A DNA stretch of 64,000 nucleotides. Origin: Desulfobacterales bacterium (GTDB lineage: Bacteria; Desulfobacterota; Desulfobacteria; Desulfobacterales; SpSt-501). The stretch is from contig JBGSTS010000020.1 of the NCBI GenBank assembly GCA_041736435.1, positions 119-64,118 of the forward strand, given 5' to 3'. The notes under the pieces were generated by a model. It was not told where the DNA came from and did not search any database. It worked only from the letters and a program-made list of their open reading frames with translations. The number at the start of each line of letters is the position of its first letter. The stretch's first letter is position 1. Below are positions 13,521-57,013 of the stretch, piece after piece. Both the position numbers and the translations under genes were made by a program.

Positions 13521-13524
13521 GGCT

Positions 13525-18147: not shown

Positions 18148-18151
18148 TCTT

Positions 18152-38383: not shown

Positions 38384-39040
38384 TTAGTTGTCCGCGTGGC
38401 GGTAGATTTCGCCCTCGACGAGGTAGATCACCTCCTCGGCAATGTTGGTGGCGTGGTCTGAGATTCGTTCGAGGTGGCGCGAGATGAGCAGCAGGTTGAT
38501 GTAATACCCCACCCTCTCGGGCAGCTCTTTGATGGCTTGCTTGATCTGGTCGTAGGCTTCGTTCTTGATGTGGTCGACCTCGTCGTCGAGGGTGATGACC
38601 CTGTAGGCGATATCCACGTCCGTGTTGACAAGGGAGTCCAGGCTCATTTTCAGCATCCGCTGAACCTTTTCCCCCATCTCCGAGTAATCGAACATGAAGG
38701 GCGGTTTGGGGCGCTTGGCGATGATGCTCACCCGCTGGCCGATATTCACGACCTGGTCGCCGATGCGCTCGAGTTCGTTGTTGATTTTGACTACCGAGAT
38801 GATGAAACGCAGGTCAACGGCCACCGGTTGATGCAGGGCCAACACCTTCAGGCACTCCTCCTCGATCTCGACCTCCATGGCATCGACCTCCCGGTCGGCG
38901 GCGATGATGCGCTCAGCCAGCTCCGGGTCGATCTGGTCGATGGCCTTGGTAGCCGTGTGCACGAGATCCTCCACCAGGGACCCCAGGGTGAGAATGCGTT
39001 TCTTGATGCTGTCGAGCTCTCTGCGGAAGCGCTTGGTCAT
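38384..39040 (-). CDS. phoU: Phosphate signalling complex protein PhoU
   Basis: 218 aa with two PhoU repeats (...DREVDAMEVEIEEECLKVLALHQPVAVDLR... / ...DDEVDHIKNEAYDQI...ISRHLERISDHATNIAEE). Confidence 0.9.
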   Translation of the reverse strand: MTKRFRRELDSIKKRILTLGSLVEDLVHTATKAIDQIDPELAERIIAADREVDAMEVEIEEECLKVLALHQPVAVDLRFIISVVKINNELERIGDQVVNIGQRVSIIAKRPKPPFMFDYSEMGEKVQRMLKMSLDSLVNTDVDIAYRVITLDDEVDHIKNEAYDQIKQAIKELPERVGYYINLLLISRHLERISDHATNIAEEVIYLVEGEIYRHADN

Positions 39041-39110
39041 CGGGTCATGCCCCCCAATCAGCGTTCATTTAGCTTCAATCTTTATGCTATTACATCCAGG
39101 CTAGCGGCGT

Positions 39111-39137
39111 GTGAGTAAAAGGTTAGGTTTCGGTTAT
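39111..39137 (-). promoter_or_regulatory. Candidate Pho box array (phoU promoter)
   Basis: The plus strand has GTGAG (39111), GTTAG (39122) and GTTAT (39133). On the minus strand that is ATAAC-N6-CTAAC-N6-CTCAC. The period is 11 bp and the array is about 70-95 nt upstream of the phoU ATG. Confidence 0.5.
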
Positions 39138-39224: not shown

Positions 39225-39262
39225 ATAATCAATATTTAGTGGTTGTCTAACATCGGGCTAAC
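39225..39262 (+). promoter_or_regulatory. Candidate Pho box array (phoH side)
   Basis: ATAAT (39225), TTAGT (39236), CTAAC (39247) and CTAAC (39258), all exactly 11 bp apart. Confidence 0.5.
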
Positions 39263-39554: not shown

Positions 39555-40760
39555 GTGAAACGCATGCTGGATCAGCAGAAGAACTACATCATCGACACCA
39601 ATGTGCTGCTGGAGGACCCCAATTCGCTGGTCAAACTGAGAAACGGCAATGAGAACCACATCTTCATTCCCTACCATGTGCTTCTCGAACTGAACAAAAT
39701 CAAGAAAGACCCGAAGCTGCGCCATATCGTCGCCCGTGTGATCGAGTACCTGGTCGCCAACCCGGACGCATTCAAAGTTCTCCACTCCGACGCTGTCGCC
39801 AACCCATACGTGAACCTCGTGGACAACTTCATTCTGGACGAGATCCAATCCAGCGGCCTGGACAAGCCCATCCTGGTGACCAACGACAAGATCTTCCAAC
39901 TCCAGGCGCGGCTGCGGGGGATCACGAGCGAGATCTACAAGGAGTCGGTGCCGTTCAAGTCCGAGGCGGAATACTTTACCGGCTTCGTGGCCGGCCGAGA
40001 GGAGGCGGTGGCCAACGCCTTCATGTGGAACGACCAGGGCAAGCCCGTGTTTTTCGGGCCCGACGGGGAAAAAGTCATCGACTACCAGCACAAGGTCTGG
40101 AAGGTCGCTCCCCGCAACGTGTTTCAGAACCTGGCCATGGAGCTGATGACCCACCCGGGGATCGACATCGTCTCCGTGCAGAGCGAGGCCGGCTACGGCA
40201 AGAGCTACCTGGCGCTTGCGGCGGCTCTCTATCTCGTGCTCGAACGCAAGGCCTACCAGAAGATCTACGTTATCAAGCCCACCATCGAGATCGGCCAAAA
40301 GCTCGGCTATCTCCCCGGCCGACTCGAAGAGAAGATGGAGCCTTACACACGCTACATCGCCGACCTGCTTGCAAAGCTTCACCGGCTGCGGCCCGCTAAC
40401 AAGGTCTTCGTCGAGGCAGACGCCTACCCGCCCCAGTTCAACTCCAAGATGTTCGAGATTCTGCCTCTGGCGTACATCCGGGGCATGAACATCGACAACG
40501 CCGTGGTTATCATCGACGAGATGCAGAACATGGCCCGCTCGGAGTGCCGCGCACTGCTCTCCCGCATGGGGGAGGGGGTGAAGTGCCTGTGCCTTGGGGA
40601 CACCCGCCAGGTGGACAACCCCTATCTCAACCAGGAAAACAACGGGTTGAACTGGGTGGTCAAGAAATTCAAGGGCAGCCGGATCTACGCCCACATCGTG
40701 CTGAAAGGGGATAAATCCCGCGGCCCCATCACCGATCTGGTCATTTCCACCGGACTCTAA
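39555..40760 (+). CDS. PhoH-family ATPase with an N-terminal PIN domain (YlaK-like)
   Basis: KNYIIDTNVLLEDPNSL is a PIN domain. ...SEAGYGKSYLALAAAL... is a P-loop. ...VIIDEMQNM... is Walker B. ...GDTRQVDNPYL... is also present. The more likely start is the ATG at 39564, with AGAGG upstream. Confidence 0.85.
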   Translation: MKRMLDQQKNYIIDTNVLLEDPNSLVKLRNGNENHIFIPYHVLLELNKIKKDPKLRHIVARVIEYLVANPDAFKVLHSDAVANPYVNLVDNFILDEIQSSGLDKPILVTNDKIFQLQARLRGITSEIYKESVPFKSEAEYFTGFVAGREEAVANAFMWNDQGKPVFFGPDGEKVIDYQHKVWKVAPRNVFQNLAMELMTHPGIDIVSVQSEAGYGKSYLALAAALYLVLERKAYQKIYVIKPTIEIGQKLGYLPGRLEEKMEPYTRYIADLLAKLHRLRPANKVFVEADAYPPQFNSKMFEILPLAYIRGMNIDNAVVIIDEMQNMARSECRALLSRMGEGVKCLCLGDTRQVDNPYLNQENNGLNWVVKKFKGSRIYAHIVLKGDKSRGPITDLVISTGL

Positions 40761-40958: not shown

Positions 40959-42833
40959 TCAGCCTGCGTGGTGCCTCTGCGTTTCAGGCACAGGGGGCGG
41001 GGATCCGCTTTCGGCGCAGGCCCCGTGGCAGGCCATCAGCGCGGCGACCCCCGCTTCCCCCATGTAGCGTTCAAGGGTCTTGCGGTCGGTCTGAAGCAGG
41101 TCCACCACGATCAGTCCGTCCATGACGTTGCCGAAATCCCGGTCGATGTTGAACCCCAGCAGCTGCCCGCCCAAGTTGAGATAGTGCCGCAACAGAACCG
41201 GGACCTCGCGCTTCTGGAATTCGATGTCGGCAATCACCGCACAAACCTCCTTGAAATCCTGTAAATGGAGCGTTTTACCGGATTGGGCGCATCCGGGTAT
41301 GCGGATGGGGGCGATTTTGGCCGGCCGCCGTGGCCGGACCATGAGAGAGAGGTCCTTCGCCTGACTGTGCTGAAGCAGGGTAGTTGCGATCAGGCGCCGC
41401 GATAAATCGCTGTAGTCGCGGCTGATGCTGACCGGTCCGAAGAGCCGCCGATACTGAGGTTGGCGGGCGATGAAACTGCCGATGCCTTTCCACAGGAGCA
41501 GCAGGGGGGCATAGGAGCGCTGATATTCCGGACGGACGAAGGAGCGGCCCAGCTCCAGCGCGGACCCCAGCCTTTTAAAAAATTGCGCCTGGGTGTGAAA
41601 CAGGGTAGTGGTGTAGAGGCCTTTCCGGCCGAATCGACTCAACAAAATATCGGTTCGGCCGAGGCGGTAGGCACCGACAATTTCGGATGCGGCCTCGTTC
41701 CAGACAAACAGATGCAGGTAGTGAGGATCGAATCGGTCCAGGTCTAAAGGCTTCCCGGTCCCCTCGGACGCCGCCCGGAACGAGAGTTCCCGCAGACGGC
41801 CGATCTCTTGCAATAGATTGGGTATTTGCCCAGCCTCAGCCTGCCACACGGAAAAATCACCGCTCTGCGCCAGGCGCTGCCAGGCAGGCAGGCGCTCGAT
41901 CTCGCGGCGACAGACATCCGGGTCCTGGGGGATAGCCAGCGGCTGCTCCCTGGGCACGTGAGGCATTTTTTCGATCGCGGCCGTCCGGATCCCGGCTGAC
42001 GGTTTGAATCCCAGAATGAGGGTCCTCCAACGCAGGTACTCCACCCGTCGTGAATCATCGGCGTAGCGTTGAATCCAGCGAAACGGAATGGGGGCCCCGA
42101 TTTTGACCTCGATCGTCTTGCGCTCCTTGTTGATCAACTCCCTCGCCAGCAGAGCCGTACGCAGGCGCGGGTGGATCATGCCGGCGGCATGGAAGACAAT
42201 GCCGTTGCGGCCTTTCACGAAAACCGGAAGAACCGCAGCCCGAGTCCTGCGGGCAATGAGGCCGGCGGCCGGGCTCCAGGCGCTGTCGGCAATCTCGCAG
42301 CTCGCTAATTTGAAATGCGAGACTTCACCGGCGGGAAAAACGAGAAGCATGCCTCCGTCGTTTACCCAGCGCAGGGCCGCCCGGATCGACCCGGTATTGC
42401 TGCGGGCCGATCCGGGCCGGTTGAACGGGTCGACCGGGATGGTCAGGCGTCGAAGCTGAGGGATGCGGTTCAGCATGAAGTTGGCCATGATTTTCAGATC
42501 CGGCCGAACGGACATCAGCAGATCGGCTAGGATAATCCCCTCGATCCCTCCGAAAGGGTGATTGGCAACCACCACCAAAGACCCCGTGCGGGGTATCTGA
42601 TCGATTTCATGCAGGCTGGGCTCGCAGCGAACACCCATTTCGGACAGCAAGGCGTGCATGAAGCGTTTCGGCTCCTTGACGTGGGCCACCCGATCATAAA
42701 GCATGGCGCACCGGGTGAGCCCAAGAACGTGCTCGATCGGCCGGAGCCCGCGGGCGGCCCATCGACTTGTTTTGGATTCAGGCAAATCCGGTAAAATCGA
42801 AAAAATGGGTTTGTGTGAAACAGTCGTCTCCAT
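40959..42833 (-). CDS. Bifunctional acyltransferase with a PlsC-type O-acyltransferase domain and an OlsB-like GNAT N-acyltransferase domain (OlsF-like aminolipid synthase)
   Basis: The N-terminal half has VVANHPFGGIEG and ...LLVFPAGEVSH... (lysophospholipid acyltransferase blocks). The C-terminal half has ...FRAASEGTGKPLDLDRFDPHYLHLFVWNEAASEIVGAYRLG..., the hemolysin/OlsB-like N-acyl-amino-acid synthase signature. Confidence 0.7.
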   Translation of the reverse strand: METTVSHKPIFSILPDLPESKTSRWAARGLRPIEHVLGLTRCAMLYDRVAHVKEPKRFMHALLSEMGVRCEPSLHEIDQIPRTGSLVVVANHPFGGIEGIILADLLMSVRPDLKIMANFMLNRIPQLRRLTIPVDPFNRPGSARSNTGSIRAALRWVNDGGMLLVFPAGEVSHFKLASCEIADSAWSPAAGLIARRTRAAVLPVFVKGRNGIVFHAAGMIHPRLRTALLARELINKERKTIEVKIGAPIPFRWIQRYADDSRRVEYLRWRTLILGFKPSAGIRTAAIEKMPHVPREQPLAIPQDPDVCRREIERLPAWQRLAQSGDFSVWQAEAGQIPNLLQEIGRLRELSFRAASEGTGKPLDLDRFDPHYLHLFVWNEAASEIVGAYRLGRTDILLSRFGRKGLYTTTLFHTQAQFFKRLGSALELGRSFVRPEYQRSYAPLLLLWKGIGSFIARQPQYRRLFGPVSISRDYSDLSRRLIATTLLQHSQAKDLSLMVRPRRPAKIAPIRIPGCAQSGKTLHLQDFKEVCAVIADIEFQKREVPVLLRHYLNLGGQLLGFNIDRDFGNVMDGLIVVDLLQTDRKTLERYMGEAGVAALMACHGACAESGSPPPVPETQRHHAG

Positions 42834-43051
42834 AATGTCTCCTCCGCGTCAAATAGTTTTTCCGGGGCCCTGCATCCCCCTGCACCGGGAGCAGATGGGA
42901 TGCCGCGTGGCTGGGACCGGCGTGGCGGCGGCAGCCCCCGGTCGCAGCTGCTTATTACCGACTCTGATGTTGCATGAGCCTAGCGGGCGGGGTTTAGGAG
43001 CGTGCTAGATTGCGGCTAAAATTCCATGCGGTGGGGATCTGGCATTCAAAA

Positions 43052-43078
43052 CTAACCGCAGGTTAACTTACAGCTAAC
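43052..43078 (+). promoter_or_regulatory. Candidate Pho box array (divergent OlsF-like / lysE intergenic region)
   Basis: CTAAC (43052), TTAAC (43063) and CTAAC (43074) at an 11-bp period. The last unit is 88 nt upstream of the lysE-family ATG. Confidence 0.55.
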
Positions 43079-43165
43079 GTGCCCCGGTCAGAGTCGGATG
43101 AGACGTGATCGGGGAACCGGCCGTTAAGGAAGCGCGCTGCGGCGCCGGCCGGTTCAAGGAGCGGA

Positions 43166-43798
43166 ATGGATCAGCTTTTGTTTTGCAAGGGGGTCGCCCT
43201 GGGCCTTTTGTTGTGTGCCCCTCTCGGCCCGGTCGGTATCCTCTGCATCCGGCACACGCTGGTGGACGGCCGGCTGGCAGGCATGCTTGCGGTGCTGGGC
43301 GCTGCTATGGTGGATGCGGTCTACTGCCTCATTGCGGCCCTCGGCATTACGCTGGTCGCGGGATTTTTAGAACAAGGCCGCTCCTGGATTCAGCCTCTCG
43401 GCGGGTTGGTGCTGGCCTTTGTCGGGTTTCATCTGACATGCGAGCCCTCCGGCGCGCGCCGTGTTTCCGGGACACGCGGCTATAACCTCATGGGGGCCTT
43501 CCTATCGACGTTTTTGCTGATGCTTTCCAACCCGCTGCCGATCCTGATCATCAGCGCAGCCATTTCCGCCATCAGCGGACCCGCGTGGGTGTCGATGCCG
43601 ACCGCGGCGCTCGTGTTGATGGCCGGCGTGTTCTGCGGTTCAATCCTGTGGGCGCCGATCCTCATCATCGGCGCATCCATGCTCAAACCCCTGCTGAAGC
43701 GCGAGCACCTGCGGGTCCTGCAGCGGGCCAGCGGCATCGCACTTCTAATCTGCGGGTTTTTCCTCGGTATCTCACCTTTTTTCCGCCACCCCGGTTAA
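43166..43798 (+). CDS. LysE/RhtB-family amino-acid exporter
   Basis: 210 aa with six hydrophobic helices and the N-terminal ...APLGPVGILCIRHTL... typical of LysE-type translocators. Confidence 0.8.
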   Translation: MDQLLFCKGVALGLLLCAPLGPVGILCIRHTLVDGRLAGMLAVLGAAMVDAVYCLIAALGITLVAGFLEQGRSWIQPLGGLVLAFVGFHLTCEPSGARRVSGTRGYNLMGAFLSTFLLMLSNPLPILIISAAISAISGPAWVSMPTAALVLMAGVFCGSILWAPILIIGASMLKPLLKREHLRVLQRASGIALLICGFFLGISPFFRHPG

Positions 43799-43810
43799 CT
43801 TCATCAACAT

Positions 43811-43848
43811 TTAGCGGTGTTTTAATCCGGGACTAACAGCATGTTGAT
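43811..43848 (+). promoter_or_regulatory. Candidate Pho box array (PHP-glycosyltransferase promoter)
   Basis: TTAGC (43811), TTAAT (43822), CTAAC (43833) and TTGAT (43844) at an 11-bp period. The array ends 50 nt upstream of the ATG at 43899. Confidence 0.5.
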
Positions 43849-43898
43849 CAAATTCGGCTTGATATGAGCGATTCGATCAATCCCTTTTCAGAGGAGCT

Positions 43899-45794
43899 AT
43901 GATGAAAGCGGACCTGCATGTGCATTCGCGGCACTCGACCCGGCCCTCCCAGTGGTTCCTGCAAAAGATCGGCTGCCCGGAAAGCTTTACCGACCCGCTG
44001 CAGCTCTACCACATTGCCCGGCGGCGGGGCATGACGCTGGTGACCATCACGGATCACAACAAGATCGACGGTGCCCTCGAGATCGCTCATCTTCCCGGGG
44101 CCTTCGTGAGCGAAGAGGTGACCGCCTATTTTCCCGAAGACGGCTGCAAGGTCCATGTGCTGGTCTACCGCATCACCGAGGCGCAGCACGCGGAGATCCA
44201 GAAAATCCGCACCGACGTTTACGACCTCCTCCGCTACCTAAAGGATGCGGCCATACCCTGTGCCCTGGCCCACCCGATGTATGCGGTCAACGATCGGTTG
44301 ACGGTGGCCCACATCGAAAAGCTCTTGCTGTTGTTCCGCAATTTCGAATTGAACGGCGACAGCAACCCGGAGTCCAACCGCAGCCTGGAGACGGTGCTGT
44401 CAGCCTTGACCCCGGCTGACATTGAGCGTCTGGCGAACACCCATGGCATCTCCCCGCTCTGGCCGGAACCCTGGCGCAAAAATCTGATCGGCGGCTCCGA
44501 CGACCACAGCTCGCTCAACATCTCCCGCAACTTCACCCAGGTGGAGGGCGCCGGGAGCGTCGATGCGTTCCTGGCCGGGATAGAGTCCGGGCAGGCACGG
44601 GTGGTCCAGCGGCCCTCCTCGCCGCAGGCCATGGCTCACAACCTCTACAGCATCGCCTACCAGTTTTATCGTCAGAAACTCGGGTTGAGCCGGGATGCAC
44701 CGCAGCATTTCCTGCTGCGCTTCATCGACCGGTGCCTGCGGCTAACGGACGGGTCTGAATCGGGGTTTCTGGCACGGCTGCATTTTCTGTGGCAATACCG
44801 CCGGATCCGCAAAATACAGGGCAGCATTCCCGGCCCCCTGGTGGAGCTCCTGCAGCAGGAGACGTCGCGGTTGCTGGAAGAGGATCCGGCGCTTTTCGAT
44901 CTGCCCGAGGCGGGCGACTGGATGTCCAAGCGGATGGAGGAGCGTTGGTTCGACTTCATGGACAGGATGTCCAACCGGATCCTGCTCGGATGCGCCAACC
45001 ATCTCCTGGGCCATGTGTCGGGGGCCAACCTGTTCAACATTTTTCAAACCATCGGCTCGGCCGGAGGGTTCTGCACGCTGCTGACCCCCTATGCGATGGC
45101 GTTTTCCCACTACAACCGCCAACGGCAGTTCAGCCAAGCCGTGTTGGAACGGTTTGGGCATGCCGTGCCTGACGATCCGACGCCATCGCAGGCGTGCGCT
45201 GTGTTTGCGGACACTCAAGCCGACGGGCAGGAATCGATCCGAACGCATGCTCGCAGCCATCCGGGGCGGCGGTGCGCGCTGTTGACCTGCGATACCGGGG
45301 TTGAATCCGAGGCCGTCAAGCGTTTTGAGCCCATCGGGGTCTACGAATTCGACGAGCAGCCGCACTACCGGCTGGTCTACCCGCCGGTCCTGGAGATGCT
45401 CGACTACTGCTACACCGGCCGATTCAGCCGTGTGCACCTGGCCACCACCGGCCCGGCCGGTTTGGCCGGCCTGTTCATCGGTCGCTTTCTGAAGCTGCCG
45501 CTGGAGGCCGACTTCAGCGACCTGCTGCCGCGCATGGCGCGGGAGATCACCCGGGATGGGTTCATCGAGGAGCTCTGCTGGCGCTACACGGTGTGGTTCT
45601 ACAGCCAGATGAATACGGTTTACGTCTCCTCCGGAGCCCAGCTGGCCGAGCTGGCCCAGCACGGTATTCCCCGCGCAAAACTCAGGGTGGCACCGCAGCC
45701 GACGGATTCGGCATCGCTCTGGGGCGATGCCCGCACAGCCCCCGCCGGTGCTGCCTCCCGGCGGCTGCGGCGGCAGGCCGGCGCCCGCATCTGA
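43899..45794 (+). CDS. PHP-domain phosphoesterase fused to a GT-B (GT4-like) glycosyltransferase N-terminal half. The C-terminal nucleotide-sugar half appears to be missing.
   Basis: MKADLHVHSRHS...VTITDHNKIDG is a PHP metal-binding motif. The C-terminal ~200 aa resembles a GT4 N-domain (...RVHLATTGPAGLAGL...VYVSSGAQLAELAQHGIPRAKLRV). The ORF then ends in low-complexity sequence, where RGVD...EX7E would be expected. Confidence 0.65.
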   Translation: MMKADLHVHSRHSTRPSQWFLQKIGCPESFTDPLQLYHIARRRGMTLVTITDHNKIDGALEIAHLPGAFVSEEVTAYFPEDGCKVHVLVYRITEAQHAEIQKIRTDVYDLLRYLKDAAIPCALAHPMYAVNDRLTVAHIEKLLLLFRNFELNGDSNPESNRSLETVLSALTPADIERLANTHGISPLWPEPWRKNLIGGSDDHSSLNISRNFTQVEGAGSVDAFLAGIESGQARVVQRPSSPQAMAHNLYSIAYQFYRQKLGLSRDAPQHFLLRFIDRCLRLTDGSESGFLARLHFLWQYRRIRKIQGSIPGPLVELLQQETSRLLEEDPALFDLPEAGDWMSKRMEERWFDFMDRMSNRILLGCANHLLGHVSGANLFNIFQTIGSAGGFCTLLTPYAMAFSHYNRQRQFSQAVLERFGHAVPDDPTPSQACAVFADTQADGQESIRTHARSHPGRRCALLTCDTGVESEAVKRFEPIGVYEFDEQPHYRLVYPPVLEMLDYCYTGRFSRVHLATTGPAGLAGLFIGRFLKLPLEADFSDLLPRMAREITRDGFIEELCWRYTVWFYSQMNTVYVSSGAQLAELAQHGIPRAKLRVAPQPTDSASLWGDARTAPAGAASRRLRRQAGARI

Positions 45795-45851
45795 CACCCA
45801 CCGATCCCCAGCCCGATCGGCTGCAGGGCCTGAGATGCGGCTCATAAAAAA

Positions 45852-45878
45852 ATAACCCTGCCTTAACCGAGGGGTAAC
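45852..45878 (+). promoter_or_regulatory. Candidate Pho box array (PAP2/glycosyltransferase promoter)
   Basis: ATAAC (45852), TTAAC (45863, within CTTAACCG) and GTAAC (45874) at an 11-bp period. The array ends 40 nt upstream of the ATG at 45918. Confidence 0.55.
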
Positions 45879-45917
45879 GATGCGAGGGTATCATCGGCCC
45901 ATTCCAAGGAGAATCCT

Positions 45918-46445
45918 ATGCGCTATTTGGTCGATAGCATCACGCGTTGGGACACCCAGTGGTTCAGCGCTATTTTTGGATTGGGCGGAAAACGGCTCCT
46001 ATCCCTTCTGATGCCGTGGGTGTCGCGCAGCGGCGACGGCTATTTCTACCCGGTGCTGGCTTTGGGTCTGATAGCGATCGATGATGCGCAGGGAAGGCGC
46101 TTCCTGACGGCGGCCCTGGCGGCATTTGCCCTTGAACTGCCGGCATACAAGCTGATCAAGAACTGCGTCAAGCGGGATCGGCCCACCGACAAACTGCCGG
46201 CCGTATGCGGCCGCATTGTCCCAAGCGATCGGTTCAGTTTTCCTTCAGGCCACGCGGCGGGCGCCATGCTGATCGCAACCCTTCTTGCCCACATGGTGCC
46301 GGTCGTTTTTCCGCTGGCCGCCGCCTGGGCTCTATCGGTTGGCTTTTCGCGGGTCTATCTGGGGGTTCATTACCCCACCGATGTCCTGGCGGGAATGGCC
46401 ATCGGCATGCTGAGCGCCCTCTTCGGCATTGCTCTGGCGGCTTGA
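45918..46445 (+). CDS. PAP2-family (phosphatidic acid / lipid phosphate) phosphatase
   Basis: All three PAP2 motifs are present: KNCVKRDRP, FPSGHA and SRVYLGVHYPTD. It is a membrane protein. Confidence 0.85.
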   Translation: MRYLVDSITRWDTQWFSAIFGLGGKRLLSLLMPWVSRSGDGYFYPVLALGLIAIDDAQGRRFLTAALAAFALELPAYKLIKNCVKRDRPTDKLPAVCGRIVPSDRFSFPSGHAAGAMLIATLLAHMVPVVFPLAAAWALSVGFSRVYLGVHYPTDVLAGMAIGMLSALFGIALAA

Positions 46446-46459
46446 GCCTAACGGCTGCC

Positions 46460-47506
46460 ATGAAGATTCTTTATGGAGTCCAAGGCACCGGCAACGGCCA
46501 CATCTCCCGCTCTCGCGAAGTCATCCGTTATCTGAAGGAAGATGGTCACGAGGTCCAGGTGATCGTCAGCGGCCGGGACCGGGCTTTGCTCTGGGATATG
46601 GAGATCTTCGAGCCATACACGGCGCTGCGGGGGCTCACCTTCGCCACCCATCGCGGCCGGATCCAACACCTGCGCACGGCGCGCCAGTTGAACCTGATCC
46701 GGTTCTACGTCGACATCCGCGCCTTCGATGCTCGTGGGTTCGATCTGGTCATCACCGACTACGAGCCGGCAACCGCGCGCATTGCCCGTCGCCATCGGCT
46801 GCCATCGATCGGGATCGGACACCAGTACGCCTTTTGCCACGACATTCCGGTCAAGGGCCAAAACCCTCTGGCGCGCTACATCCTGGATCACTTCGCGCCC
46901 GTGGATTATCCGATCGGACTGCACTGGCACCACTTCGAACAGCCGATCCTGCCGCCGGTGGTGCCGGAATTTTCTTCCCGGCCGGCGCCGGTTCCCGGAA
47001 AGATACTCGTCTATCTCCCGTTCGAGGAGCTTTCCGATATCCTGCGGCTGCTTGGCCCCTTCGATGCTCATGCGTTTTATATCTACCATCAGCTGCAGCA
47101 GCCCGAGGGCACGGGCCATTTGAACTTGAGGCCCTATTCGCGCACCGCCTTTCTCAACGACCTGACCGATTGCAGCGGGGTCATCACCAACGCCGGTTTC
47201 GAGCTGGTCAGCGAGGCTCTGGCACTCGGCAAAAAAATCCTGGTCAAACCGCTCACCGGGCAGATGGAGCAGCTCTCCAATGCGGCGGCGCTCGCCGAGC
47301 TGAACCTGGGGCTGACAATGAAGAGGCTTGACAGGGAGGAAGTGGACCGGTTTTTGGGAAAACCCACCTTAGTCCGGGCGCAATACCCAAACGTTGCCCG
47401 CATGATCGCCGATTGGATTCCTAAAGGGGACTGGGGGAGTCTGGCCGAGCTCTCTCGCGCAGCCTGGGCGCAGACTCACTATTCCGGAGGTTTCAGTTCG
47501 GGCTAA
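46460..47506 (+). CDS. GT-B glycosyltransferase (MurG/MJ1255-like)
   Basis: MKILYGVQGTGNGHISRS... is the glycine-rich N-terminal motif of this family. The ATG is 15 nt after the PAP2 stop. The ORF-track start at 46205 overlaps PAP2. Confidence 0.7.
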   Translation: MKILYGVQGTGNGHISRSREVIRYLKEDGHEVQVIVSGRDRALLWDMEIFEPYTALRGLTFATHRGRIQHLRTARQLNLIRFYVDIRAFDARGFDLVITDYEPATARIARRHRLPSIGIGHQYAFCHDIPVKGQNPLARYILDHFAPVDYPIGLHWHHFEQPILPPVVPEFSSRPAPVPGKILVYLPFEELSDILRLLGPFDAHAFYIYHQLQQPEGTGHLNLRPYSRTAFLNDLTDCSGVITNAGFELVSEALALGKKILVKPLTGQMEQLSNAAALAELNLGLTMKRLDREEVDRFLGKPTLVRAQYPNVARMIADWIPKGDWGSLAELSRAAWAQTHYSGGFSSG

Positions 47507-49905
47507 CTCGCTTCGATGATGACTCGTCCAGCTCCCCCATCGATCGTCACCTGGGAGCCCTCTGGAATCAAGCGGGTCGCCTGGCGGATTCCGACCACGG
47601 AGGGGATCCCCAGCTCCCGCGCCACGATGGAGCAGTGGTTCAGCAGCCCGCCCTCTTCCATTACGAGGCCTCCCACCAGGCTGAGAATGGGTGTCCAGCC
47701 CGGATCCGTATGCCGGGCCACGACGACATCCCCCTGGTGGATGGCGGCCGTCGCAGGATCCACGACGATAACCGCTCTGCCAGTGGCTCGCCCCGGACTG
47801 GTTCCGATCCCGTGCAGGACCGTGCCATCGAGAGTGAGATCATATTCCGGCCGGCCCTCAACCCAAAACGTGCAGGGATCCGCCGGTTTACTAAACTGTT
47901 CGCGTCGCTTACCGGCGATCCGGTTCGCTGCCATAGGCGGCAGGCGACCGGCCGCCAACCGTTCGATCTCATCGGGGGTTAGGAAAAGGGTCAGATCCCC
48001 CAAGCCGAAGTGCCGTCCGAGCGAAAGCAGGTCCGCGCGAATATGGAACAGGACTTCATCCAGCAGAAATCGTAGCTCCTCCCGCAGGTCAAGAAACCGG
48101 CAGGTCAGGCGAGCAACCAACTTCAGTGCCATCCGTGGCACCGATAGAAGCGCCCCTCGCGGCCTTTCCGCCGCAGGACGGCATTCGGGCGTTATCCTCG
48201 TGGTCCCGCCATGGCGCACCAGCGACTGGAGAATTGCGATCACCTCTTCCGGGGCTTCGATCCAGCGCTTCATTGCGAGCGTGCGGTGGCGTGAGCGGCA
48301 ACCGTAGCGGCCGAGGAAGGTGTCGAGCGCTTTCTGAAGATCGGTTGGCAGCGAACGGGCCAGGCTCTCCGCAGGCTCGTTTCGAAAGCGTTCGCCGGCG
48401 TCGCGGTCGGCGGCGATGCGTTCTCCCATGGCACGAAACCACTGCTCGATCCGCAGGGTGACGTTGTTGCCGCGCCGGCTGAGGAGCTCTAAAAATTCGG
48501 TCCCAGGCAGTTTCATCAGGTCCATGGCCCACCAGCGAAGTACCCAGGTGAAAAACGTTGCGTGGGAATAGGGCCACTGGTTGTTTTCCTGGATCAAGGC
48601 CAGAGTTTCCAAATCGGTGCGCAGGATCTCGATCAAGTCGGAAGCGGTCGCTTCGCTCGCTGCAGGCCGGGCCGGCGTTCGCATGCGGGCACGCAGGCGC
48701 TCGATGTTACGCGGCGCGCGCCGCAGGCACACCCAGGGCAGAAGGCCCGGTTCGCTCAGGGGAAGGCGGGCCAGGCAGAAGCCGATGCGCAAAAGCGTCC
48801 ACGCAGGGGGGGTAGGGATATCCTCCAGTTGCGAGTCCGTCGGCAGCAGGGAGTGAAACTCTTTGAACCGCAACCGGCGCGGCATGAGGGCGATGAGGCG
48901 CCGAATCCCTTCGCAGTTGACATAGAGATAGCCGTTGACGACCGCCAGGGCCGGCACGACCGGAATGATTCCGACCCGCCGCGCGATGGCCGACAAGTCA
49001 AAGCGCGGGGCATGCGCCAGCATGACCTCGGCCATGAACGGGGTCAGCCGGTCGGCCCAGAGATCGTCAGCGATCTTGCGGGTCCAGCTCCCGGCCGGCG
49101 GCAGAACGCCCGCGCCGGCCAGGGAGGTGATCGGCCGCACCTGGAGCAGCCAGAGCCTCAAACGCCGGTCAACCGCCCACTCCATATCGAGCGCGGCACC
49201 ATCGTAGACTTGCTCCAGTTGCTGCAGCAGTCGCGCCACCTCTTCCCAGGGAGTGTCCCGCGCCACTTTCTGACGTGACCGCCGCCTCCCTTCGAGCTCG
49301 ACTCGCCCGCTCCGGAGAAAGGCCGCGCGGCATGGTGTGCGGTGACCGCTGACCAACCCGTCGCCGTGGCCCCGGACGGCCTCGATGATCATTTCATCCC
49401 TGCCGGGAGCGAGCGGGTTGCGGCTGAAGGCCACGCCGGCAACGTGAGACTCCACCATGCGCTGGATGACGACGGCCATCCGTGGGGTTTCAACGTCGCT
49501 TCCCCGAACGTTGAGGGCCTTCACGTAACTGCCCACTATTTCGGAGCTGGCGCTGGCCCAGCAGGCTTCGATACGCTCCAGAAGCCCATCTTCGGTGTCG
49601 ATCTCAAGGAAGCTCTGATATTGACCGGCAAAACTCCGGCGATGGCCGTCCTCGCGGGTAGCCGAGGAGCGGATGGAAACGCCTCTGCTCAGGCTGAGGC
49701 GGCGGGCGGCCTCCAGGACCTCGTCGCGCAGCCCGTCCGGCCAGGAGCCGGTGGCCAGGTAAAGGCGGTGGGCCGCAGTGCTGACGGCAATCGCCTCGGG
49801 CACTGGAAACCCCCGCCGGGCGGCATCGGCCAAGGTGGAAAACTTTCGGCCGACCACACTCGGATCAAGTGCATGGTCATCCTGAAATCCGATGAGGTAG
49901 GTCAT
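47503..49905 (-). CDS. PEP-utilising enzyme family protein (N-terminal PPDK_N ATP-grasp, C-terminal phosphohistidine swivel domain)
   Basis: The N-terminus has ...VGRKFSTLADAARRGFPVPEAIAVS.... The C-terminus has ...GIGTSPGRATGRAVIV...ARHTDPGWTPILSLVGGLVMEEGGLLNHCSIVARELGIPSVVG. There is no PEP/pyruvate TIM-barrel domain. Confidence 0.8.
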   Translation of the reverse strand: MTYLIGFQDDHALDPSVVGRKFSTLADAARRGFPVPEAIAVSTAAHRLYLATGSWPDGLRDEVLEAARRLSLSRGVSIRSSATREDGHRRSFAGQYQSFLEIDTEDGLLERIEACWASASSEIVGSYVKALNVRGSDVETPRMAVVIQRMVESHVAGVAFSRNPLAPGRDEMIIEAVRGHGDGLVSGHRTPCRAAFLRSGRVELEGRRRSRQKVARDTPWEEVARLLQQLEQVYDGAALDMEWAVDRRLRLWLLQVRPITSLAGAGVLPPAGSWTRKIADDLWADRLTPFMAEVMLAHAPRFDLSAIARRVGIIPVVPALAVVNGYLYVNCEGIRRLIALMPRRLRFKEFHSLLPTDSQLEDIPTPPAWTLLRIGFCLARLPLSEPGLLPWVCLRRAPRNIERLRARMRTPARPAASEATASDLIEILRTDLETLALIQENNQWPYSHATFFTWVLRWWAMDLMKLPGTEFLELLSRRGNNVTLRIEQWFRAMGERIAADRDAGERFRNEPAESLARSLPTDLQKALDTFLGRYGCRSRHRTLAMKRWIEAPEEVIAILQSLVRHGGTTRITPECRPAAERPRGALLSVPRMALKLVARLTCRFLDLREELRFLLDEVLFHIRADLLSLGRHFGLGDLTLFLTPDEIERLAAGRLPPMAANRIAGKRREQFSKPADPCTFWVEGRPEYDLTLDGTVLHGIGTSPGRATGRAVIVVDPATAAIHQGDVVVARHTDPGWTPILSLVGGLVMEEGGLLNHCSIVARELGIPSVVGIRQATRLIPEGSQVTIDGGAGRVIIEAS

Positions 49906-50159
49906 CGCAGTCTCATATCGCTGATTGCGAACGCCGATGCAGCGGCATCATTTTACGTGGTTGAGGCTCGTAAATTTTTCGAGCGGGGCGGGTGCCGGAT
50001 ATTCGAACAGACTCCGGTCCGGCTGTTTGACTCTGATGTGAAATAGGTTAGAAATCGGTTGCCGGTTGTCATTGGTGCGGGCAAAGAGGAGCTGCCGCTC
50101 ATCTCGGGCAATCCTTAGACGAAGGCAGCCCAAAAGGAAAAAGCTGGATAGCGGCAGGT

Positions 50160-51332
50160 TTAAGGGCTGCGACGCTGTCGGGTGCGCCGGGGAGAGCGGT
50201 CAAGCATTGCCAAGACCTTGACCGCGACCTCATACGCCGCCTGCGGCCGGGCGATGCGCCGGGCATTGGCCTTGAGCCGAGCCAGCCGACGCGGCGAAGA
50301 GAGCAGCGCATTCAATTTATAGTTCAGGGTCGCCAGATGGCCGACCTTTACCGCCGCACCGCTTTCCAACAGGAAATCGGCGTTGCGGCTCTCCTGGCCG
50401 GGGATCGGATTGACGATCAGCATCGCACCCCCGCAGCATAAAACCTCCGCCGATGTCAATCCGCCGGGTTTGGAAATCACCACGTCCGCCGCGGCCATGA
50501 GCTCATCGATCGCCTCCGTGAAGCCGACGATCGTGACACGGTGGTGCGGTGCGGCGGGTGCCCGGTTCAACCGCTCCCGGAGCGCATCATTGCGCCCGCA
50601 CACCACCACAATCTCCACGGCGACGTTCAGTGCCAGCAAGCTGAAAAAAATCTGTTCGATCGGACCGACCCCGAACCCGCCTGAAAGCAGGAGCAGGATC
50701 GGCCGCTCCCCCTTAAGCCCCTGGGTCCTGAGGCAGCGGAGTCGGTCTTTGCGTCTGCTGAACACCGGGTGAACGGGAATGCCGCTGACCGTGATATCCC
50801 GCGCTGGTACCCCCCAATAGGCGAGATTCGCCGCGCTCTCCTCCGTGGCCGCGAAGTAGTGATCGCATGGGCGTTGGACCCACATCCGGTGCGTCATGAA
50901 ATCGGTAGTGACGGTCACCTGCCGCACATTGATTTTTCCCGCGGTCCGCAGCGAACCGATGATCTCCGCCGGTAGAAAATGAGTGTTGACCACCACGTCC
51001 CAGCTCTCTGATTCCAAAAGCTTCAGGAAAGGTTTGAGATTCAAGCGCTGCAGGGCAATCCGAAATCGATCCGCCTCCAGCTCCTGAGGGCGGTCCAAGA
51101 GGTCGTAGACATAGCCGAGCAAGTGGGGGGCCCGGCGGGCAACATCGAGGTAGCCCTTGCCGTATATTCTGCGGAAGGCGGAGCTGGCCAGGCTCAGGAC
51201 GTCCACATTCTTCAGCATCAGGCCGGGGGCAATTTCCTGCAGGGCCAGCTCGATGGCTTCCGCCGCACGCACGTGGCCGGCCCCGACGGATGCCGAAAGG
51301 ATGAGAATGCGTTTGGGAATTTGTTGGCGCAA
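50160..51332 (-). CDS. GT28 diacylglycerol glycosyltransferase (MGDG-synthase / UgtP-like)
   Basis: ...ILILSASVGAGHVRAAEAI...FRRIYGKGYLDVARRAPHLLGYVYD... is an MGDG_synth N-domain. ...ISKPGGLTSAEVLCCGGAMLIVNPIPGQESRNADFL is a GT28 C-domain. Confidence 0.8.
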   Translation of the reverse strand: MRQQIPKRILILSASVGAGHVRAAEAIELALQEIAPGLMLKNVDVLSLASSAFRRIYGKGYLDVARRAPHLLGYVYDLLDRPQELEADRFRIALQRLNLKPFLKLLESESWDVVVNTHFLPAEIIGSLRTAGKINVRQVTVTTDFMTHRMWVQRPCDHYFAATEESAANLAYWGVPARDITVSGIPVHPVFSRRKDRLRCLRTQGLKGERPILLLLSGGFGVGPIEQIFFSLLALNVAVEIVVVCGRNDALRERLNRAPAAPHHRVTIVGFTEAIDELMAAADVVISKPGGLTSAEVLCCGGAMLIVNPIPGQESRNADFLLESGAAVKVGHLATLNYKLNALLSSPRRLARLKANARRIARPQAAYEVAVKVLAMLDRSPRRTRQRRSP

Positions 51333-51404: not shown

Positions 51405-51461
51405 CATTAATTCCGCTTGTTGCGACATTAAAACATTGACGGACCCATTAAAATCCATTAA
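51405..51461 (-). promoter_or_regulatory. Candidate Pho box array (GT28 glycolipid synthase promoter)
   Basis: The hexamer CATTAA (TTAATG on the minus strand) occurs four times, at 51405, 51426, 51446 and 51456. Spacings are 21, 20 and 10 bp. The nearest unit is 73 nt upstream of the ATG at 51332. Confidence 0.45.
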
Positions 51462-51611
51462 TCGTTTCTTGCTGAAATCTGCACTGATATTTCTCCTTAC
51501 CGTTTTTCACAAATCATTTCATGTAATGACGTTTTTTTGGAAGATTGAACGCGACCAATTGCCCGCAGTGCTTGCCTGAAAGCTTTCCCGGAATCAACGG
51601 AGGTGGCAAAA

Positions 51612-52076: not shown

Positions 52077-52562
52077 TCATAAATCCGGATTTAAATTTCT
52101 CTCGATATAGGAGGCGTAGTCCTTCATGACCGGCTGGTATTTTTGATCCATCAGGTCAGAAGAAATTAGGAAATCGGCCGTCGACCGGTTGCATGCGATG
52201 GGAATGTTGTAGAGCACGGCGATGCGCAGCAGGGCTTTCACATCCACGTCGTGTGGATGCGGGGTCATCGGGTCCCAAAGAAATATAATGCAGTCGATCT
52301 GCCCCTCCACGATCATAGCGCCGAGCTGCTGGTCCCCGCCCAGCGGACCGGATTTCAATTTCAGAATCTCAAACGGGAGGGCCCTTTCTGCCACTTTTTT
52401 CTTCAATGCCGCCTCGATCATCCGCCCGGTGGTTCCGGTGCAGATGAGCCGATGCCGCAGTAACGGCTGGTAGTTCCATTCCACCCACTCGATGAGATCC
52501 TTCTTTCGATGGTCATGCGCGACCAGCGCGATATTTTTTACTTCCTCCATCCGATCCTCCAA
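52077..52562 (-). CDS. mgsA: Methylglyoxal synthase
   Basis: ...IALVAHDHRKKDLIEWV...LICTGTTG...GPLGGDQQLGA...FLWDPMTPHPHDVDVKALLR.... Confidence 0.9.
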   Translation of the reverse strand: MEDRMEEVKNIALVAHDHRKKDLIEWVEWNYQPLLRHRLICTGTTGRMIEAALKKKVAERALPFEILKLKSGPLGGDQQLGAMIVEGQIDCIIFLWDPMTPHPHDVDVKALLRIAVLYNIPIACNRSTADFLISSDLMDQKYQPVMKDYASYIERNLNPDL

Positions 52563-52835: not shown

Positions 52836-52862
52836 CTAACCCGAGGCTAGTATAATCCTAAC
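52836..52862 (+). promoter_or_regulatory. Candidate Pho box array (2-aminoethylphosphonate operon promoter)
   Basis: CTAAC (52836), CTAGT (52847) and CTAAC (52858) at an 11-bp period, about 140 nt upstream of the phnS ATG. Confidence 0.55.
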
Positions 52863-53003: not shown

Positions 53004-54047
53004 ATGTTGCCGTCGGTTCTTGCCCGCTTCAAATCTTTCGGACTGCTGGCCTGCGTCCTGGCACTGTTTATCGCCGCACCTTCCGCGGTGCTGGCCGCAG
53101 AGGAGATCATCGTCTACACCGCATTAGAGGATGACGAAATCCCCAAGTACCTCGCCCTCTTCAAGCAGCAGCATCCGGATATCACCGTCAAGATCGTGCG
53201 GGACTCCACCGGCATCGTCACCGCCAAGCTACTGGCTGAGAAGGCCAACCCCCAGGCCGATGTCGTCTGGGGAACGGCGGCAACCAGCCTCATGCTCTGC
53301 AAGCAGGCGGGAATGCTGGAACCCTTTGCGCCCAAGGGACTCGAGAAGGTGAAACCGCTCATGCGCGACTCCGCCAACCCGCCGGCCTGGGTGGGGATCA
53401 AGGCCTGGGAAACCGGGTTCTGCGTCAACACGATCGAATCCAAGAAGCTGAAACTGCCGGCCCCCGAATCCTTCGCCGACTTGACCAAACCGGTCTACAA
53501 GGGCCAGATTTCAATGCCCAACCCCGCCTCCTCCGGGACCGGCTTCCTGACGGTTTCCGCCGTGCTGCAGATGATGGGCGAGGCCCCGGGCTGGGAGTAT
53601 CTTGACAAGTTGCACGCCAACATCGCTCGCTACACGCACTCCGGCTCCAAGCCCTGCAAGATGGCGGGCGCCGGCGAGGTTCCGATCGGGATCTCCTTCG
53701 CCTACCGCGGGTTCATGCAGAAGCAGAAGGGCGAGCCGGTCGAGACGGTTTTCCCCAAGGAGGGCTCCGGCTGGGACGTAGAAGCCAACGCCATGATCAA
53801 GAAGGCCGCCATCAAACCGGCGGCTAAAATCTTCCTCGATTGGGCCATCAGCGAGCCGGTGATGAAGGAGTACGGCAAGATCTATCCGGTGACCGCCTAC
53901 CCGAGCGGCAACCCCATCCCCGAGGGATACCCGAAGGAGCCCGAAAAGCAGCTCGCCAAGAACGACTTCGACTGGGCCGCCAAAAACCGCGAGCGCATCT
54001 TGGCGGAATGGACCAAACGCTACGACAGCAAAAGCGAGGCCAAATAG
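53004..54047 (+). CDS. phnS: 2-aminoethylphosphonate-type ABC transporter, periplasmic binding protein (FbpA/PhnS family)
   Basis: It has a signal peptide, then [13 protein letters not shown]...PASSGTGFL.... The operon context with phnX and phnW supports the call. AAAGGAG lies upstream. Confidence 0.8.
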
Positions 54048-54066
54048 CTCCTACTGCCGCCGCTTG

Positions 54067-54093
54067 CGAGCCGGATGGCCGCCATCCGGCTCG
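54067..54093 (+). other. Intercistronic stem-loop after the binding-protein gene
   Basis: CGAGCCGGATGG-ccg-CCATCCGGCTCG, an 11-12-bp perfect stem between phnS and the ATPase gene. Confidence 0.6.
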
Positions 54094-54112
54094 GATTCGA
54101 ACGAGGACCCGT

Positions 54113-55219
54113 ATGGGCAACTCCTTTGATCTTTCGCCCTATTTAAAAGTCGCCGGCGTCACCAAAACCTTCGGGGAGTTTACCGCCCTCCAGGATGTCT
54201 CCTTCAGCGCCGAGCGCGGCGAGTTTCTGTGTGTGCTGGGCCCGAGCGGCTGCGGTAAAACCACCGTACTGCGCATCCTGGCCGGACTGGAGGTTCAGAC
54301 CGGCGGCAGCGTGCACATCGAGAACCGGGACGTCTCCGGCCTGCCGATATCCAAACGCAATGTGGGCATCGTTTTCCAGTCCTATGCTCTCTTTCCGAAC
54401 CTGACCGCAGCCCAGAACGTGGCCTACGGGTTGAAGAGCCGGCGGTCTCAAAAAGAGCGCAGCGCGCAGCGGGTGGCGGAACTGCTTGAGCTGGTCGGGC
54501 TGACAGGCATGGGTGAGAAGTACCCGGCGCAGCTGTCGGGAGGCCAGCAGCAGAGGGTGGCGCTGGCCCGCGCCATGGCCCTCTCGCCGGACCTGCTGCT
54601 ACTGGACGAGCCGTTGTCGGCGCTGGACGCCCAGGTGCGTGTCCTGCTGCGCCAGGAGATCCGCCAGCTGCAGCAGCGGCTCAAGGTGACCACCATCATG
54701 GTGACCCATGACCAGGAGGAGGCGTTGACCATGGCCGACCGCATTCTGGTCATGGACAAAGGCCGCCTGGTGCAGAGCGGGACCCCGCTTGAAATCTATG
54801 ACCGACCGGCCACCCCGTTTGTGGCCGCCTTCATCGGATCCATGAATTTTTTAGAGAACGCGGTCAAGGTGGATACGGCGGTCTACCGAATCGGCGGCTG
54901 CGACCTGCGGGTGGCAGGGGAAAACGGATCGCAGCGGCTGGCGATCGGCGGCAGCGCCACGCTCGGCATCCGACCCGAGGACATCCTGATCTGGTCCGAC
55001 CGCCGCGATGCACCCAACACGCTCCCGGCCCAAGTGGAGGCGATTGAATACCGCGGTCCGCTCTTCAGGGTGGGCCTGCGGCTGGGGCCCTGCGGCCCCG
55101 GGGCCGCGCGGGTCGAAGCCGACATCCCCTCGGAGAAGGTTCGCCGCCTGGAGCTTCGGCCGGCCGCGACGCTGCCCGTGCAGCTGCCAGAGGACCGGCT
55201 CCGCGTGTACACCGCTTAA
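54113..55219 (+). CDS. phnT: ABC transporter ATP-binding protein (PhnT-like)
   Basis: GPSGCGKTT (Walker A), [14 protein letters not shown] (signature) and LLLLDEP (Walker B). The start is MGNSFDL at 54113. Confidence 0.9.
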
Positions 55220-55223
55220 TCCG

Positions 55224-56981: not shown

Positions 56982-57013
56982 GCCGCAACCGCCTGCGAGC
57001 AGGGAGGCGCATC

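Follow-up and report, generated by a model that had tools for sequence, protein, structure and literature searches.

A stretch of 64,000 nt from a Desulfobacterales bacterium (GTDB SpSt-501; contig JBGSTS010000020.1), here called the window, was analyzed around positions 40959-51332, which an earlier note had read as a gene cluster for replacing phospholipids with phosphorus-free lipids. Domains were called on the window proteins using Pfam thresholds and NCBIfam (equivalog) cutoffs. Relatives of one cluster protein, which carries a PHP phosphoesterase domain, were collected by a scan with one genome per species. The scan found 567 relatives, and the best 80 of the 567, nearly all from Desulfobacterales and Syntrophobacterales, gave the loci that were compared (L-numbers), while the gene neighbourhoods of the relatives were obtained by tblastn with the window proteins. 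The nearest GTDB species representative was 'Desulfobacterales bacterium Prado111' (PHP protein, 84% identity), and the exact OlsF-like protein of the cluster was recorded in a Logan assembly only. Seven real genes were found at 40959-51332, encoding an OlsF-like acyltransferase, a LysE-family transporter, the PHP protein, a PAP2 phosphatase, a TIGR00661 glycosyltransferase, a dikinase and a GT28 glycosyltransferase. The positions and domains that had been proposed for five lipid genes or gene pairs were borne out by Pfam and NCBIfam, although the gene list was not complete, since the conserved dikinase (47503-49905, minus strand) had been overlooked. We consider it likely that the region of about 38-63.6 kb is a Pho-regulon island of an uncultured bacterium, with a membrane-lipid remodelling cluster at its centre (40.9-51.3 kb).

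The intergenic DNA of this region carried a motif made up of two to four YTAAY units in direct repeat, spaced at a period of 11 bp (unit variants TTTAG, CTAGC and CTCAC). YTAAY-N6-YTAAY was matched 8 times in the window against 0.14 expected, and the three-unit pattern 5 times against 0.00 expected. The arrays were confined to non-coding DNA at 38-61 kb and stood mostly 5' of gene starts. A scoring scan detected 3-unit arrays upstream of phoU, phoH2, olsF, lysE, the PHP gene, the PAP2 gene, phnS2, two small open reading frames (ORFs) and a P-type ATPase gene, and none in the first 38 kb of the window; second-order Markov simulations, used as the control, gave a mean of 0.01-0.04 hits. In Desulfobacterales assemblies, arrays occupied matching promoter positions in orthologues of 50-89% protein identity and thus formed a phylogenetic footprint, and 33 of the 77 PHP-family loci had an array within 250 bp upstream, against a background of 1.7%. 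A pst operon for calibrating the Pho box was sought in the window and none was found, and the related loci L044 and L053 were used instead. The same motif lay upstream of pstS and phoU in L044, and upstream of a PHP-GT4 gene heading a pstSCAB-phoU operon in L053. The experimentally determined PhoB box of Desulfovibrio vulgaris consists of YGTNAC repeats, which have a T-N-A-C core in common with the YTAAY arrays (PMC3333781). Because these tandem direct repeats of 11-bp period stand upstream of gene starts, also at pstS and phoU (L044, L053) and at 33 of 77 PHP loci, and share this core, the YTAAY motif is identified from its sequence and placement as the putative Pho box of this lineage. A sigma-70 promoter and terminator scan of the window performed no better than shuffles, as is expected for PhoB-dependent promoters; it included a promoter-like match at 51396-51367 for the GT28 gene. 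The earlier claim of a Pho-box array before each lipid gene was supported by enrichment and footprints, except that the GT28 gene has only irregular and weaker repeats.

In L053 (9797-17096, Desulfosarcinaceae), only 4 bp separate the full-length PHP-GT4 gene (10001-12460) from the pstS, pstC, pstA, pstB and phoU genes that come after it. As the array stands upstream of PHP-GT4, a glycolipid synthase heads the phosphate-transporter operon in this locus.

The OlsF-like protein (40959..42833, minus strand) is a predicted bifunctional aminolipid synthase with an N-terminal O-acyltransferase and a C-terminal GNAT N-acyltransferase. Pfam placed Acyltransf_2 at residues 54-274 and Acetyltransf_5 at residues 347-448, which is an LPLAT-GNAT fusion, and the best NCBIfam model was OlsF (394.8 bits, model positions 29-569 of 570), followed by GlsB (128) and GlsA (89). 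The two-domain architecture proposed earlier was confirmed by this domain order and near full-length match. No PDB match was obtained by sequence search, and no transmembrane segment was seen by hydropathy. In domain order and full-length model match the protein is like OlsF of Serratia proteamaculans, Vibrio cholerae (VC0489) and Flavobacterium johnsoniae, whereas it scores under the equivalog cutoff (394.8 versus 620 bits), and its gene is paired divergently with a Pho-box-controlled lysE, a transporter that is absent from a 2026 aminolipid review (PMC12971839). According to the same review, a Pho box precedes olsF in Serratia, olsF is PhoBR-dependent in V. cholerae, and OlsF is common in Desulfobacterales (PMC12971839). 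The olsF array (42993..43019, minus strand; TTAGCC-N5-CTAGCA-N5-CTAAA) was kept in L002, L004-L006, L010 and L017, and in the truncated-PHP clade described below most loci have olsF next to the PHP gene. The lysE gene (43166..43798, plus strand; Pfam LysE, 68 bits) is linked to olsF also in L002, L005, L007, L008, L011 and L017 and has its own array at 43052..43078 (plus strand; CTAACC-N5-TTAACT-N5-CTAAC), which was kept in L002, L007, L011 and L017. For the amino-acid exporter of the earlier note, family membership and the Pho-box array therefore hold, but a role in lipid replacement is not evident.

The next gene (43899..45794, plus strand) encodes a 631-aa protein in which Pfam, alignment, AlphaFold and Foldseek delimited a PHP phosphoesterase domain, a helical linker and a vestigial GT4 N-terminal Rossmann domain. 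In the AlphaFold model (pLDDT 83) the PHP barrel spans residues 1-240, the helical linker 242-418 and the single Rossmann domain 433-597. Foldseek matched the PHP part to RNase AM/TrpH-type PHP domains; for the last part, its matches covered no more than the N-terminal half of GT4 enzymes, BshA, MshA and HepE among them. A sequence search against PDB returned noise only. The PHP metal ligands (D5/H7/H9, D52-H53, E72-E73, H125 and D201-D202-H203) were invariant or nearly so among 64 sequences of both forms of the family, and together with the PHP fold in the model and in Foldseek they assign the protein to the PHP domain. These two forms are a short class, which holds the closest homologues (mostly 57-86% identity and mostly about 610-650 aa, without PF00534), and a long class (47-55% identity, about 817 aa) with a complete GT4 module. 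The complete GT4 fusion was present in 33 of 64 aligned relatives and in 69 of the 80 loci; cultured carriers of the long form include Desulfosarcina alkanivorans PL12 (L046), Desulfobacter curvatus DSM 3379 (L022) and Desulfobacter latus (L039). In the alignment the short form stops where the second Rossmann domain would start, and it also lacks the first-half motifs TDTFYxxNGVA and TYHT. At 631 aa versus about 817 aa, without PF00534 and with a single Rossmann domain, the window protein is not a complete GT-B enzyme of family GT4. A split-off or decayed GT4 C-terminal half was sought across the window and none was found.

Neighbour joining placed the window protein and the truncated forms around it in one clade of 26 sequence clusters, and since they form a single clade of this size, the loss of the GT4 half appears to be old and maintained rather than the mark of a recent pseudogene. 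Because the donor-binding half is missing and the N-half motifs are degenerate, the protein cannot be counted as a glycosyltransferase; from its anatomy it would no longer bind a nucleotide sugar, and the model suggests that it is probably a phosphoesterase only. Thus, of the PHP-glycosyltransferase fusion named in the earlier note, the PHP fold and the GT4 N-half were found but the transferase function was not upheld. The array of the PHP gene (43800..43848, plus strand; TTTAGC / TTAATC / CTAACA) was kept in at least 9 orthologous promoters.

The GT28 gene (50160..51332, minus strand) encodes a UgtP/MGDG-synthase-like predicted diacylglycerol glycosyltransferase. Both expected Pfam domains were found, MGDG_synth (PF06925, 73 bits, cutoff 25) and Glyco_tran_28_C (PF04101, 30.9 bits, cutoff 22), and against PDB the protein matched UgtP (9wde, E=9e-40) and, over the full length, MGD1 (4wyi, E=4e-25), which agrees with the earlier assignment. 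It thus resembles UgtP (YpfP) of Bacillus and plant MGD1 in its strong match to the solved UgtP, its full-length match to MGD1 and the same Pfam pair. In Firmicutes, UgtP acts constitutively in making the lipoteichoic-acid anchor, whereas the window gene lies in a Gram-negative Pho island, and in L005 and L017 it forms an operon with lysE. Among the loci, GT28 occurred only in those with truncated PHP (L002, L005 and L017, plus a fragment in L006). Since it is found only alongside the truncated form, GT28 has probably taken over the function of the lost GT4 transferase, and by homology it is the most credible diacylglycerol glycosyltransferase of the cluster. Its promoter region holds TTAAT-type repeats at 51422..51462 (minus strand) with an irregular spacing of 8-12 bp, followed by a TATCAT -10-like hexamer; this weaker Pho-box candidate was kept in L002. 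The GT28 genes of L005 and L017 come directly after a lysE gene that has the same orientation and is preceded by a canonical array. The fragment in L006 (7699-7878) covers 60 residues, stands beside olsF and looks like a decayed copy.

The remaining three genes of the cluster formed a unit. The PAP2 lipid phosphate phosphatase (45918..46445, plus strand; Pfam PAP2, 76 bits) has in its translation the intact motifs KX6RP, PSGH and SRX5HX3D (KNCVKRDRP, PSGH and SRVYLGVHYPTD). Its nearest solved structures were Aquifex LpxE (E=2.4e-10) and B. subtilis PgpB (E=2.7e-9), all its equivalog hits fell far under the cutoff, and the top NCBIfam model was the undecaprenyl-diphosphatase SepP (60 bits). Its array (45841..45878, plus strand; ATAACC-N5-TTAACC-N5-GTAACG) was kept in L002, L003, L005, L006, L009, L013-L015 and L058, and a TATCAT -10-like hexamer follows at 45889-45894, about 10 bp past the last repeat, a layout that is expected if a PhoB-type activator stands in place of the -35 element. 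The glycosyltransferase gene (46460..47506, plus strand) starts 14 nt after PAP2, with which it is predicted to be co-transcribed. Its product is a GT-B glycosyltransferase of family TIGR00661 (MJ1255/VC2487; 204.6 bits, above the cutoff of 195.9), without a transmembrane segment by hydropathy. The AlphaFold model (pLDDT 89) led Foldseek to GT1-type glycosyltransferases of lipophilic aglycones, while the sequence gave only a marginal match against PDB. A literature search on TIGR00661, MJ1255 or PF13528 returned nothing relevant, and no characterised family member was found. A 433-aa ORF starting at 46205 was rejected as the true start of this gene, as the homologues have 341-352 aa and begin at MKILYG. 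The earlier note had linked PAP2 translationally to a GT-B glycosyltransferase; both genes are present 14 nt apart, but that ORF start was too far upstream, and PAP2 could not be told from lipid A, undecaprenyl-diphosphate or phosphatidylglycerophosphate phosphatases.

Convergent with the TIGR00661 gene is a gene for a swivelling-histidine dikinase of 800 aa, like rifampicin phosphotransferase (RPH) and PigC (47503..49905, minus strand). Pfam found PPDK_N at residues 50-262 and PEP-utilizers at 723-793 of 800, with a middle domain of no recognisable family; the phosphoenolpyruvate/pyruvate TIM barrel was not found, and the histidine domain sits at the C terminus, like that of RPH (5fbs). RPH and PigC/RedH have the same layout (ATP-grasp, substrate domain, C-terminal phosphohistidine domain, no phosphoenolpyruvate/pyruvate barrel), whereas the window dikinase differs from them in its association with a Pho box, its fixed linkage to PAP2 and the glycosyltransferase, and its unrecognised middle domain. 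Its likely Pho box (50035..50062, minus strand; GCAACC-N5-CTAACC-N5-CACAT) has one perfect and two degenerate units, and stronger arrays occur at the same place in L004-L007, L009, L013 and L014. PAP2, the TIGR00661 glycosyltransferase and the dikinase occurred together in 13 of the 13 loci that have any of them, including L013-L015 and L058, which carry the full-length PHP form and phoU directly upstream.

The order olsF-(lysE)-PHP-(phoH2)-PAP2-TIGR00661 glycosyltransferase-dikinase was kept in L002-L011. With the long form, the order was phoU, PHP-GT4, phoH2, PAP2, glycosyltransferase and dikinase in L013, L014 and L058, and likewise in L015 minus phoH2. Most relatives (L004, L006-L009, L011, L013, L014 and L058) have phoH2 between the PHP gene and PAP2, while in the window and L002 it was relocated to the left of olsF by a local rearrangement; in L008 phoH2 is in three pieces, probably through frameshifts.

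The closest known system is that of Desulfovibrio alaskensis G20, in which phosphate limitation swaps >90% of the phospholipids for the glycosyl-diacylglycerols MGDG and GADG and an ornithine lipid (PMC5193443). Mutants of Dde_3613 ('Agt') lost MGDG/GADG, and did so under phosphate limitation only, and mutants of the OlsF homologue Dde_3661 lost the ornithine lipid (PMC5193443). The main text of that paper, Bosak et al. 2016, never mentions PHP and gives no role to a PHP domain (PMC5193443). Automatic annotation describes Dde_3613 as a group-1 glycosyltransferase with an N-terminal PHP region, and by this annotation the validated G20 enzyme seems to be built like the long form, with a PHP-GT architecture. 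The window PHP protein would descend from an Agt-type PHP-GT4 family that appears to include Dde_3613. A literature search on 'Dde_3613' found a single paper, and an open-access search on PHP domain, glycosyltransferase and phosphate limitation found nothing relevant; a 2024 PNAS lipidome paper on sulfate reducers named no genes. The two systems belong to the same phylum and have in common the two chemistries (glycosyl-diacylglycerol and ornithine-type aminolipid), an OlsF homologue and a PHP-annotated glycosyltransferase. In G20, however, the two genes are about 48 locus tags apart, whereas in the window they are adjacent in one Pho-box island; the window PHP protein lacks the glycosyltransferase donor half, and the window adds the GT28 UgtP-like enzyme, the PAP2/TIGR00661/dikinase triad and LysE.

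A second comparison is the PlcP-Agt system. It is reportedly found in SAR11, Sinorhizobium and other marine heterotrophs, as described by Sebastian et al. 2016 and Zavaleta-Pastor et al. 2010. Its logic is the same, as a phosphoesterase makes diacylglycerol from phospholipid, a neighbouring glycosyltransferase glycosylates the diacylglycerol, and PhoB is in control. In the window, by contrast, the candidate phosphoesterases are PHP and PAP2 proteins and the credible diacylglycerol glycosyltransferase is GT28, not GT4, and Pfam found no PlcP (calcineurin-type, Metallophos) domain in any cluster gene. By analogy the cluster is thus predicted to work like PlcP/Agt, but is not a member of that system.

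Taken together, these results suggest the following mechanism. Under phosphate limitation a PhoB-type regulator would bind the 11-bp-periodic YTAAY repeats at the -35 position and switch the genes on. From homology and the G20 genetics, OlsF would make a phosphorus-free, ornithine-type acyloxyacyl aminolipid. The PHP protein probably acts only as a metal-dependent phosphoesterase, which its surviving acceptor-side Rossmann domain may keep at the membrane or lipid, and it may help to strip phosphate head groups, giving diacylglycerol and recovered phosphate. GT28, with its strong homology, would glycosylate that diacylglycerol. The triad would be a second Pho-controlled module that dephosphorylates and glycosylates a lipophilic acceptor, for which phosphatidate/diacylglycerol is the simplest guess. 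Pho-controlled replacement of phospholipids by aminolipids and glycolipids, as the earlier note proposed, is therefore favoured by the Pho-box statistics, synteny, GT28 homology and G20 genetics, but the PHP fusion, the PAP2 specificity, the TIGR00661 family without a characterised relative and the role of LysE did not support it. It is also less novel than that note implied, since such remodelling is already established in sulfate reducers (D. alaskensis G20) and many other bacteria.

Several points weigh against this interpretation. The organism is known only from metagenome assemblies. The OlsF-like protein stays below the OlsF equivalog cutoff and GT28 reaches 214.9 bits against the cutoff of 500 for the diglucosyl-diacylglycerol synthase PRK13609, albeit in a full-length alignment, so the exact products of both are not assured; moreover, the GT28 promoter repeats are irregularly spaced, and five truncated-PHP loci have no GT28 within 10 kb. 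Dde_3613 is tied to the PHP-GT family by an annotation string, not by sequence comparison. The PHP protein has no transmembrane or hydrophobic segment by hydropathy, and structurally its PHP domain comes closest not to lipases but to phosphoesterases of nucleotides and RNA (RNase AM/TrpH type). PAP2 matches lipid A, undecaprenyl-diphosphate and phosphatidylglycerophosphate phosphatases about equally, and for the TIGR00661 glycosyltransferase the resemblance is to natural-product GT1 enzymes and not to any known glycosyltransferase of lipids.

One alternative, which we regard as rather unlikely, concerns the triad. Here the triad would remodel a phosphorylated envelope component other than diacylglycerol lipids, either by dephosphorylation (cf. 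LpxE/LpxF) and decoration of lipid A or by acting on undecaprenyl-phosphate-linked intermediates, the latter option being modelled on the teichoic-to-teichuronic acid switch of Bacillus. The ranking of SepP (60 bits) and Aquifex LpxE (E=2.4e-10) as the top NCBIfam model and top solved relative of PAP2 agrees with this, but PgpB of B. subtilis fits almost equally (E=2.7e-9). In favour of the envelope role, the triad glycosyltransferase is GT1-like rather than GT28 or GT4, yet it is a soluble GT-B enzyme, unlike the known lipid A sugar transferases, which are periplasmic ArnT-type enzymes. Because the triad also lies beside full-length PHP-GT4 genes (L013-L015, L058), it is not a simple replacement of the lost GT4, which favours the envelope alternative; on the other hand, it is always embedded among lipid-remodelling genes.

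It is improbable, in our judgement, that the PHP protein acts on nucleotides or RNA as a phosphoesterase (RNase AM, pAp phosphatase-like), scavenging nucleic-acid phosphorus together with PIN-PhoH2, and has no lipid role. In favour of this, the protein is structurally nearest to the RNase AM PHP domain (7ug9, E=3e-7) and to TrpH-like proteins, and in most relatives the next gene after that for the PHP protein is phoH2. However, the complete GT4 fusion in the relatives (33/64 aligned, 69/80 loci), the genetic need of G20 for a PHP-annotated protein in making MGDG/GADG, and the acceptor-side Rossmann domain, kept in the truncated clade at high model confidence and hard to explain for an RNase, all argue against it. 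That the truncated gene is a decaying pseudogene in a historically accidental cluster without co-regulation, as its missing catalytic half and two degenerate N-half motifs could suggest, is effectively excluded by 26 sequence clusters down to about 57% identity, the intact frame, the invariant PHP metal ligands, the confidently folded C-terminal domain, the conserved Pho box of the PHP gene and a motif enrichment that cannot be chance.

Starting from the lipid-remodelling interpretation, a wider joint reading can be offered tentatively. The PHP domain of the sulfate-reducer 'Agt' synthases would be the so far missing enzyme that makes diacylglycerol from phospholipid; in the truncated clade it would now work alone, as a phosphoesterase targeted to the membrane, after loss of the glycosyltransferase half, with glycosylation passed to a recruited UgtP-type GT28, and the triad would be a second, undescribed head-group pathway.

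The neighbouring genes are consistent with a Pho island, and the co-localisation with phoU/phoH and a phosphonate operon that had been pointed out was found (38384-39040, 39555-40760 and 53004-59235). The phoU gene (38384..39040, minus strand; TIGR02135, 204.7 bits, cutoff 130; Pfam PhoU) has an array at 39100..39137 (minus strand; ATAACC-N5-CTAACC-N5-CTCACA-N5-CTAGC), kept in L002 and L006. The gene for PIN-PhoH2, of the phosphate-starvation-inducible RNA helicase/RNase type (39555..40760, plus strand; Pfam PIN_4 and PhoH; NCBIfam PhoH2, 158.6 bits, under the cutoff), has an array about 290 bp upstream at 39225..39262 (plus strand). The methylglyoxal synthase gene lies at 52077..52562 (minus strand; NF003559, 210 bits, cutoff 84). 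This enzyme frees inorganic phosphate from dihydroxyacetone phosphate. The 2-aminoethylphosphonate uptake and degradation operon (53004..59235, plus strand; NCBIfam/Pfam) comprises phnS2, phnT2, a permease gene, phnX and phnW; phnS2, phnT2, phnX and phnW exceed their NCBIfam equivalog cutoffs, the permease is identified by Pfam BPD_transp_1 only, and the scoring scan placed an array before phnS2 at 52836..52862 (plus strand). Together, phoU, phoH2, methylglyoxal synthase and this operon would complete a phosphorus-sparing and scavenging programme.

The methylglyoxal synthase gene (52077-52562, minus strand) showed no clear Pho box upstream; L005, L023, L040 and L044 have a homologue of it no more than 10 kb from the PHP gene. 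After phnW, two small ORFs without a family match (59531-59818 and 59829-60350, plus strand; 95 aa with one hydrophobic segment, and 173 aa) follow a strong array of about four units that begins just after phnW (59311-59348, plus strand; CTAACT-N5-CTAATG-N5-TTAATG-N5-CTAGT). A type-II (Ca2+/PMR1-like) P-type ATPase gene (60555-63608, plus strand) has its own array at 60417-60454 (plus strand), and L003, L004, L007, L009 and L011 have close homologues (74-87% identity) in the vicinity of the lipid cluster; the Pho regulon of the lineage thus seems to include a cation pump. Some 190 bp upstream of a gene for a PhsA-like molybdopterin oxidoreductase (35853-37943, minus strand) stands a two-unit Pho-box-like element, CTAACTATTTGCTAAT (38133-38148, minus strand); CTAACTATTTGCTAAT is almost the same as the sequence with which the array at 59311 begins and may be chance or a real site. 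Elsewhere in the window are genes for acetylglutamate kinase, ornithine/aspartate carbamoyltransferase and a class-III aminotransferase (3680-4597, 11342-12424 and 17987-19483); since these ornithine/arginine-metabolism genes (3680-19483) have no Pho-box arrays, their presence is probably a coincidence. A DUF748/AsmA-like protein of 1126 aa, from a family associated with intermembrane lipid transport, is encoded 18 kb from the cluster (19613-22993, plus strand) and has no Pho box. The 383-aa ORF at 39543-40694 (minus strand) was rejected as a gene, having no Pfam match and being antisense to phoH2, and the ORFs at 44742-45845 (minus strand) and 46429-47331 (plus strand) were likewise treated as shadow ORFs typical of GC-rich DNA.

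In conclusion, several parts of the cluster are uncharacterised variants of a strategy already known in the group, and the noteworthy ones are the truncated Agt-type protein, the PHP domain of its family, the Pho-regulated PAP2/TIGR00661/dikinase triad and the Desulfobacterales Pho box. Sulfate reducers have been proposed as sources of phosphorus-free glycolipids and aminolipids in anoxic waters (Bosak et al. 2016, PMC5193443). Genes that mark the capacity for phosphorus-free lipids therefore matter for interpreting metagenomes and lipid biomarkers. The Agt-type marker has a widespread truncated form that is probably unable to make glycolipid, and therefore counts of 'agt' homologues may overestimate or misassign this capacity. 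The conserved PHP domain that accompanies the Agt family is a candidate for the missing head-group-removing step. Finally, the locus defines a putative Pho box for Desulfobacterales and adds the TIGR00661, RPH-like dikinase and LysE transporter families to that regulon.

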